A stretch of DNA of 4,613 nt from IMG/VR virus record IMGVR_UViG_2703718783_000010; one strand, given 5' to 3'. Under the pieces are notes generated by a model. The model searched no databases. It saw nothing but the letters and a program-made list of their open reading frames with translations, and was not told the origin of the DNA. Made by a program: the position numbers and the translations under genes. Below, in pieces: positions 1 through 1,581 of this stretch (position 1 is its first letter; every line of letters starts with the position of its first letter). This DNA is from a virus. Its lineage: Duplodnaviria; Heunggongvirae; Uroviricota; Caudoviricetes.

Positions 1-879
1 GTCCACACCTTATCCGACGGCCGGTCCTGCACGAACGTCAGCGTCTGCCGGTTCCATACCGGCATACAGCGCATCGCAGAGCAGAAATCACTGAGCACAT
101 CCCACGCCTTGCGCTGTGTGGTCAGGTACGCATTACAGGTGATGCGCGGCTCCGTGCCGCCAAAACCGTCCGGCACTGACTGGTCGCAGTACTGGCCGAT
201 GACATACAGCGCCCATTTATCCACATCCGCCGCACCAAGACGTTTCCCCATGCCGTAGCGCGGGTGGGTCAGCATATCCCACAGACACCAGGCCATGTTG
301 TTGCTGTATGCCGGTTTCAACGTTCCGTCCCAGATACCGCTGTATTGCCGCGTCTGCGGGTTATAATTCGACGGCACCTGCAGAATACGCCCGCGCAGAT
401 GATAATTACGGCTCACCTGCTGGNNNNNNNNNNNNNNNNNNNNNNNNNNNNNNNNNNNNNNNNNCCAGCAGGCGGACTTCCGACGGATTCCTGTCACCCT
501 TTGAGGTGGTTTCCACCAGTGCCTGCACACCGAAGGTAAAGCGCAGACGGTCGATGTTTGCCGACGTGATGGTCCGGGTGATCGGCGTGTCGTATTTCAC
601 TTCCGTACCCAGCACCGTCTCGGATCCGGAGGATTCAAATCCCTCCGGCGGTGTCTGTTCCTGCTCACCTGCCCGGAACACCACCGTGACACCAGAGATG
701 TTGGTATTCCCCTCACTGTCCAGCACCGGCGTACTGTTCAGCAGCACGCTTTTTAACCCATCCACCGGACCTTCAATCGGCCCTTCGCTGATGGCATCGA
801 TCACACTCAGCAACTGCGTGGATTTCAGGTTGTCCTTCGCTTCGCGCGGGGTATGCCCCTTACTGCTACCTTTACCCAT
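1..879 (-). CDS. J: Tail tip / host-specificity protein J (central tail fibre), N-terminal part. Start codon at 879..877; the gene continues past position 1 (3'-partial) and is interrupted by the N-run at 424..464.
   Basis: Minus-strand translation from 879 reads MGKGSSKGHTPREAKDNLKSTQLLSVIDAISEGPIEGPVDGLKSVLLNSTPVLD...NIDRLRFTFGVQALVETTSKGDRNPSEVRLL, which I recognise as the lambda gpJ N-terminus. Below the gap (from 422 downward) the translation resumes as SQQVSRNYHLRGRILQVPSNYNPQTRQYSGIWDGT..., also recognisably gpJ. GGAG lies 8 nt upstream of the ATG (plus 888..891). The frame is 0 mod 3 above the gap and 2 mod 3 below it, so the 41 N do not preserve frame. Confidence 0.93.
424..464. other. 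Run of 41 N: assembly gap or masked segment inside the J coding region
   Basis: Literal n characters in the sequence. The J reading frame is recognisable on both sides but shifted by one base, and roughly 90 residues of lambda-J-like sequence between ...EVRLL and SQQVSR... are unaccounted for. Confidence 0.99.
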
Positions 880-888
880 TCCTCATGC

Positions 889-921
889 TCCATAAACGAC
901 AAAACCGCCCGCAGGCGGTTT
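889..921 (-). terminator. Stem-loop with downstream U-rich tract in the I-J intergenic spacer (weak intrinsic-terminator-like or RNA-stabilising hairpin)
   Basis: On the gene (minus) strand the spacer reads AAACCGCC-TGCG-GGCGGTTTT-GTCGTTTATGGAG. This is a perfect 8-bp stem (plus 902..909 pairing with 914..921) with a 4-nt loop, followed by a T-rich stretch that runs into the J Shine-Dalgarno. Seen directly; function is inferred. Confidence 0.35.
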
Positions 922-939
922 CACATAAAACATTTTGCA

Positions 940-1581
940 TCAGCGACCAATCACCACAACCTGACCACCATCCCCTTCGTCTGCCGTGCTGATCTCCTGA
1001 GAAACCACCCGCGACCCCACACGCATTTCACCGTACAGAACAGGCAAAACATTGCCCTGAGCAACCATGTTATCCAGTGATGAGAAATACGTGTTCTGCT
1101 TACCGTTATCCGTGCTGGTCGTTGTTGCGGTACTCGCTTTCGGTGCCAGCATCTGTGCAACACCGCCAAGCGTCATCGCCGCACCCATTGAAAAGAGAAT
1201 GTCACTGAAAGCGATACTGATCCCCGGCATCCAGATTGCCGTAGCAATCAACGCCGCACCCAGCACCGCCTGAAACACACCGCCACTTTTTGCTCCCGCA
1301 AGACGCGGCACGATGTGGATCACTGCACCATTTGCCAGCGGCTCATTAAGACGGGATGATAATTCGGTTTCGCCTGCATCACGCCCGGCAATCCGCACCT
1401 GATACCAGCCGTCGCTCAGTTTCTGACGAAACGCCGGGAGCTGTGTGGCCAGTGCGCGGATGGCTTCAGCCCCCGTTTTCACACGAAGGTCGATGCGGCG
1501 GCCAAATCGTTGCAAATCCCCGTAAAGGCAGATGCGCGCCATGCCCGGTGACGCCAGAGGGAGTGTGTGCGTCGCTGCCAT
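940..1581 (-). CDS. I: Tail tip assembly protein I, 213 aa: N-terminal ubiquitin-like (beta-grasp) domain ending near a Gly-Gly, then a hydrophobic Gly/Ala-rich segment and a conserved C-terminus
   Basis: Translation MAATHTLPLASPGMARICLYGDLQRFGRRIDLRVKTGAEAIRALATQLPAFRQKLSDGWYQVRIAGRD...TDNGKQNTYFSSLDNMVAQGNVLPVLYGEMRVGSRVVSQEISTADEGDGGQVVVIGR matches lambda gpI at both ends. Stop TGA at 942..940. Its first 103 nt overlap the 3' end of K in another frame, as in lambda. Confidence 0.9.
   Translation of the reverse strand: MAATHTLPLASPGMARICLYGDLQRFGRRIDLRVKTGAEAIRALATQLPAFRQKLSDGWYQVRIAGRDAGETELSSRLNEPLANGAVIHIVPRLAGAKSGGVFQAVLGAALIATAIWMPGISIAFSDILFSMGAAMTLGGVAQMLAPKASTATTTSTDNGKQNTYFSSLDNMVAQGNVLPVLYGEMRVGSRVVSQEISTADEGDGGQVVVIGR

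Follow-up and report, generated by a model that had tools for sequence, protein, structure and literature searches.

The run of 41 N's in the tail gene J of an Escherichia coli lambdoid prophage scaffold is an assembly artefact that most probably hides 271 bp of ordinary coding sequence

The 4,613-bp stretch of DNA that we analyzed, referred to here as the window, contains a run of 41 N's inside J, the gene for the tail tip attachment protein. The question that this locus raises is what lies behind the run: a 41-bp feature, some content other than J, or an ordinary piece of the gene. Sequence comparison identifies the window as the reverse complement of the GenBank WGS record LOFQ01000074.1, 4613 bp with the N's included, that belongs to the E. 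coli draft assembly GCA_001606705.1; a literature search found no paper mentioning LOFQ01 or GCA_001606705. The gap is present in the WGS record itself, between pieces of 4149 bp and 423 bp, in agreement with an earlier sequence-only reading of the same DNA, according to which the run is a placeholder and not a 41-bp feature. The N-run is an assembly artefact and no biological feature, and there is nothing novel about it. Most probably, it is a scaffold gap in a short-read draft that hides 271 bp of ordinary J and that arose from a break at a repeated prophage combined with an underestimated gap size.

The minus strand of the window carries a lambda-like tail module, H'-M-L-K-I-J' (Table 1). 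As is the case for lambda gpJ/TipJ, J comes after H-M-L-K-I, based on gene calls and Pfam matches in the record and in 10 related contigs. The scaffold is only 4.6 kb, with conserved tail genes at both of its outer ends. The H part is 99.6-99.9% identical to ten related loci (L004-L013), and the K product is exactly the protein KYR36720.1 / WP_062862240.1, labelled Escherichia coli. A mosaic boundary lies at approximately window position 2213. On one side of it, H, M and L match a widespread prophage type (L012) at ~100% identity; past it, identity to this type drops, from 97% to 86% in K and to 51-83% in the center of I. Across the whole collection, the exact K of the window is found on only two contigs and the exact I on one. 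A search for this K/I lineage with the gap filled recovered only a 2.1-kb contig that ends in I and a 1.2-kb metagenome scaffold that ends at J codon 118. K runs ~100 nt into the 5' part of the I frame (window 1479..1581), and the start of I is ambiguous, with the ATG at 1581 giving 213 aa, the record calling 200 aa, and related contigs having 182-215 aa. Between I and J, at window ~895..925 on the minus strand, lies a GC-rich hairpin, AAACCGCC-UGCG-GGCGGUUU, that is followed by a U-rich tract and has a minimum free energy of -22.8 kcal/mol (z = -2.96 versus shuffles). This hairpin resembles a terminator, is absent from the list returned by a consensus terminator scan, and presumably has a near-identical counterpart in lambda.

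Table 1. Coordinates of the features described in the 4,613-bp window
Feature	Position	Strand	Basis or remark
Run of 41 N's, most probably a scaffold gap between two contigs	424..464		Sole N-run of the window; also in LOFQ01000074.1
J (tail tip attachment protein), 5' fragment, codons 1-138 plus first base of codon 139	465..879	-	Translation, Pfam, identity
J, downstream fragment, last base of codon 229, codons 230-369 and 2 nt	1..423	-	Translation; runs off contig end
CCTGCTGG, 8 bases adjoining the gap	416..423		Reverse complement of 465..472
CCAGCAGG, 8 bases adjoining the gap on the other side	465..472		
Tape-measure protein H, C-terminal 453 codons	3251..4613	-	PF09718 Tape_meas_lam_C on the record's call; runs off contig end
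Minor tail protein M, 109 aa	2925..3254	-	PF05939 on the record's call
Minor tail protein L, 232 aa	2227..2925	-	PF05100; exact protein in 566 blocks of the collection
Tail protein K (C40/NlpC-P60 peptidase), 247 aa	1479..2222	-	PF14464 and PF00877
Tail assembly protein I	940..1581	-	ORF; PF06805 Lambda_tail_I on the record's call (200 aa); start codon uncertain

Translation of the two sides of the run defines what the missing segment has to supply. J starts at the ATG at position 879, and the 415 nt from 879 to 465 comprise 138 codons (MGKGSSKGH...NPSEVRLL) followed by G, the first base of codon 139. On the other side, 423 to 1 consists of a last codon base, C, and then QQVSRNYHLRGRILQVPSNY... 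(140 codons and 2 nt); the N-run is thus followed by the single base C and by 140 codons, QQVSRNYHLRGRILQ..., that reach to the end of the window, and this downstream fragment translates in frame 1 as QQVSRNYHL.... Since one extra base precedes the gap and one base follows it, only a spacer of 1 mod 3 keeps J in frame, and the 41 N's amount to 2 mod 3. The observation of the sequence-only reading that J is readable on both sides of the run but with its frame shifted across it is therefore accurate. Taken literally, the sequence gives a 157-aa ORF (406..879) that crosses the N's into the wrong frame and stops. In LOFQ01000074.1, J is called as a 138-aa product that stops where the gap begins, and the 423-bp piece is without any gene call, which is the truncation by gene callers that had been anticipated.

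The upstream J fragment is 96-99% identical to annotated J genes, and its 138-aa product matches the Pfam family PF24801 (FNIII-A_GpJ) with E=2.4e-13 and 50.7 bits (cut-off 27). The match extends over profile positions 3-54 of 126 only, because the remainder has been removed by the gap; PF24801 spans residues 86-207 in a full-length relative, and the codons hidden by the gap, V139 to S229, complete the FNIII-A domain of J. For the downstream fragment, PF13550 (Phage-tail_3) reaches 22.4 bits versus a cut-off of 23, with only the first 35 profile positions falling before the contig end. Judged by its nucleotide identity of 95-98.6% to annotated J genes, there is no practical doubt that this fragment also belongs to J. 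The C-terminal Ig-like and receptor-binding domains (PF24421, PF24489, PF09327 and PF12421) lie at residues 610-1159 of the full-length relative, and J in the window ends at codon 369. Neither this lambda-type J of the TipJ family nor the lambdoid prophage tail module around it is out of the ordinary.

Given the frame constraint, the spacing of the same flanks in relatives is informative. When aligned to lambda J (J02459.1, nt 15505-18903), both flanks are collinear and in the same orientation, with 271 bp of J between them, coding V139 QIQRNGGWVTEKDITIKGK...VDSEQFG S229. The sequence-only reading had put the loss at about 90 residues and the true length near 271 bp, which is 1 mod 3, and these estimates, its frame argument and the peptide that it expected there all prove right, as 91 codons are touched by the 271 bp of lambda, 89 of them wholly hidden, and the spacers of relatives run from 270 to 272 bp. 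The spacer is likewise 271 bp in 12 further fetched loci and in the J genes of Stx phages, at ~79% identity. Among the 59 IMG/VR and GTDB loci that carry the left flank and whose length permits a judgement, it is 271 bp in 58 and 270 bp in one; eight more loci stop inside the hidden segment, all of them beginning with the normal continuation. For complete E. coli genomes, we took 57 rows as an even sample down the ranking of 4512 complete records, and 52 of them show a span of +230 over the 41 N's (that is, 271 bp), the other five being +/-1 from this. No insertion or inverted segment was seen between the flanks in the relatives examined, roughly 130 in total, and none of these has a 230-bp deletion. 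A flank followed by exactly 41 bases and the other flank was found in no record of IMG/VR or of the species-representative genomes, the source assembly being outside both. Variable sites among the relatives number 24/271 in the hidden segment, versus 47/415 and 34/423 in the two flanks, and the variability of the hidden segment is ordinary.

Lambda itself shares the gene order H-M-L-K-I-J with the window, and the flanks are 96.4% identical upstream (15/415 mismatches) and 97.4% identical downstream (11/423), with the 60 nt before the gap being identical. Structures of the lambda tail tip (8IYK, 8IYL, 8K35, 8XCG, 8XCI and 9E7M) cover J residues 1-436, the hidden residues 139-229 included. Unlike lambda, the window has 41 N's in place of 271 bp (codons 139-229), the receptor-binding C-terminus lies beyond the contig end, and K and I are of another lineage (~88% identity over the aligning part). 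The best overall matches to a 1-kb stretch around the gap, at 97.6-97.9%, are J genes of E. coli lambdoid prophages, such as those of strain Z1322HEC0009 (NZ_CP148570.1, WP_338913329.1) and the phage PhiR49_2 (PV340570.1). Both have a spacer of 271 bp and share with the window the neighboring I gene and the I-J intergenic region, and their J genes are intact, unlike that of the window, with 1159 and 1232 codons, respectively. However, neither is the source lineage, since K/I are only 90-91% and L/M 90-92% identical. A lambda-identical 40-mer was also found in species-representative assemblies of taxa unrelated to one another, namely Neobacillus, Kitasatospora, Pseudomonas, Shewanella, Bradyrhizobium, Corynebacterium and others (L062-L082). 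Many of these matches are on contigs of ~48.5 kb or near 1x coverage, and they look like contamination of the assemblies with lambda control DNA.

The run has the properties of a scaffold gap, in that the N's are part of the deposited record, the flanks are collinear and are continuous in relatives, and the literal length is inconsistent with the frame. Like scaffold gaps of estimated length in short-read WGS assemblies, it is an N-run between two short contigs of a WGS record, here in a multi-copy prophage gene whose call is truncated at the run. Under this explanation, the two pieces would be contigs that were ordered and oriented by read pairs, one of 4149 bp (H'-M-L-K-I-J codons 1-138) and one of 423 bp (J codons 230-369). 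The figure of 41 would be the scaffolder's estimate of the length rather than a measured value, as suggested by its being a non-standard gap value. The real DNA between the contigs would be the 271 bp of J codons 139-229, presumably with this content in the strain, and would restore both the frame and the FNIII-A domain. The likely cause is that the strain has more than one lambdoid prophage, with near-identical H and J sequences; a de Bruijn-graph assembler would lose the single copy here, and contigs would be cut where SNPs separate the copies. In complete E. coli genomes, the 1-kb stretch is matched in 4482 of 5426, at a median of 2 and a maximum of 8 places per genome. Clustering at 90% identity places the 138-aa fragment in a group of 3793 members, and those of the listed ones that have names are nearly all annotated as partial J proteins of ~113-154 aa; draft contigs therefore commonly stop in this region of J. 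When J alleles are paired at random, just 3% of the pairs agree at every position of nt 416-686, and the exact tract that they share around the gap has a median length of 81 nt. Because such identity is rare, the gap may stand for several short unitigs in a row, some shared and some unique, that were discarded, and not for a single cleanly collapsed repeat.

On this account, the scaffolder would have set the gap too short at 41. Naive gap estimators, as Sahlin and colleagues reportedly described in 2012, undershoot since only the longest inserts span the gap. One of the linked contigs here is just 423 bp, and gap-size estimates are steadier when links join large contigs (BESST, PMC4262078). 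Some observations stand against the explanation. The estimate of 41 differs from 271 by 230 bp, a serious error had numerous read pairs bridged the gap; the two flanks differ in their nearest relatives, as described below; and a scaffold gap leaves unaccounted for an 8-bp inverted repeat that exactly adjoins the gap edges.

The positions of the contig ends were compared with polymorphic sites among the relatives. A common polymorphic site lies at exactly the 28th base from the end at three of the four contig ends, namely the H end (24/28 relatives), the left gap edge at J nt 388 (12/77) and the right edge at J nt 714 (29/69). This arrangement fits, only suggestively, de Bruijn contigs bounded by SNPs at which a second copy differs. 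A k of ~27-28, considered from the matching 27-nt offsets at J nt 388, J nt 714 and the H end, was downgraded, as ~19% of sites are polymorphic and the J end misfits. The 128th base is polymorphic at both gap edges too, several values of k fit, and the look-elsewhere probability for an offset match is ~0.1-0.15 as a rough estimate. Contigs of nine other public E. coli assemblies (L084-L092), one of them 361 kb and one from a Logan assembly, stop at J nt 413-415. A k-independent hot spot at these positions was set aside as largely a selection effect, given that the contigs came from a look-up by fragment length, that there are 3793 other partials, and that four of the nine share one allele. The commonest polymorphism, at J nt 288, sits exactly 127 nt before the break, and therefore k = 127, a commonly used k-mer size, would give the same contig end.

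It is conceivable, although unlikely, that the gap is real but the scaffold is chimeric, joining a J 5' part and a J internal piece from two prophages of one genome, in which case the two flanks would not occur together in any one J gene. The two flanks do have different nearest relatives. The upstream flank is 99.3% identical to L043 and L050 (3 mismatches), which are only ~95% identical downstream (18-22 mismatches, with 18 for L043), and the downstream flank is 98.6% identical to L002 (6 mismatches), which is only 97.1% identical upstream (12 mismatches). Such a difference could stem either from the usual lambdoid mosaicism or from a join of two J copies, and a chimera would also be in keeping with a gap estimate that is 230 bp off and with the 2-8 copies of the stretch that are common in E. 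coli genomes. Nevertheless, SNP mosaicism is normal among lambdoid J genes, where the shared exact tracts have the short median given above, the window itself changes lineage between L and K/I, and order, orientation and approximate distance of the pieces all fit one J gene. We consider it very unlikely that the spacing of 41 bp is true, with the N's being low-quality or masked bases and J being a pseudogene in a decaying prophage that has suffered a 230-bp deletion and a frameshift. The literal sequence does yield a frameshifted J, and prophage tail genes are often pseudogenes, examples being the J remnant of REL606 and L002, in which M is frameshifted and H truncated. However, such a deletion is absent from all of the ~130 relatives, no viral or representative-genome record has the flanks exactly 41 bases apart, the edges are without a direct repeat and have an inverted repeat instead, and a deletion offers no reason for the N's. 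In E. coli B REL606 (L093, NC_012967.1 551306-554657), a J pseudogene lacking the N-terminus is located directly after the terminase small-subunit gene. This remnant matched only downstream of the gap, but a REL606 junction at the gap edge was rejected, as J homology there starts at nt 631, which makes it a deletion junction inside the hidden segment.

The remaining alternatives would place something other than a simple gap at this position. The sequence-only reading had cautioned that anything inserted in the gap would be invisible in the window, which is logically right, and multi-copy insertion sequences are classic contig breakers, yet nothing supports an insertion. An insertion of at least 0.8 kb is hard to square with an estimate of 41, that is, with bridging by short-insert read pairs. 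In addition, junction contigs normally extend k-1 bases into the element, whereas J sequence alone continues right up to the N's on both sides, and no relative carries an insertion here. IMG/VR scans for other sequence following the left flank or preceding the right one gave only unrelated chance matches and one ordinary J with a SNP. Non-J content, such as an insertion sequence or other mobile element in J, is thus extremely improbable. The eight bases adjoining the gap on either side, CCTGCTGG and CCAGCAGG, form a perfect inverted repeat, for which the chance is ~5e-5 per site pair (lambda J). The repeat is native to J, lambda included, and CTGCTGG/CCAGCAG is composed of the common E. coli codons CTG and CAG; its placement at the gap edges is probably coincidental. 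Were the reads to hold the 271-bp segment in both orientations, through inversion at the repeat or as a fold-back library artefact, the graph would branch at the inner edges of the repeat. Both contigs do stop exactly there, as this model predicts for any k-mer size, and six of nine other contigs, in a sample fetched via the 138-aa fragment, also stop at exactly J nt 415. These nine, however, were retrieved with a query fragment of precisely this length, and one allele is common to several of them. Moreover, the inversion junction is absent from complete E. coli genomes, in which none of 7368 places in 5426 genomes covers >58% of the junction query, 60/60 fetched segments are collinear with lambda, and 8-bp inverted repeats at such spacing are far too common genome-wide to break assemblies. 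We give this account hardly any credence, and real structural heterogeneity at the repeat, whether from coexisting orientations of the segment or from another J copy rearranged exactly at J nt 415/416 and 686/687, is most improbable.

A scaffold gap over 271 bp of ordinary J is therefore the reading that we retain. Annotators of the record are left with a 138-aa 'partial J' and an uncalled 423-bp fragment, or with a false frameshifted pseudogene if the N's are taken literally, and the lengths of N-runs in drafts are unfit for inferring frame or indels. For the biology of J there is no consequence, the finding being an annotation caveat only, and the case also shows that short-read E. coli assemblies break systematically at lambdoid tail genes.
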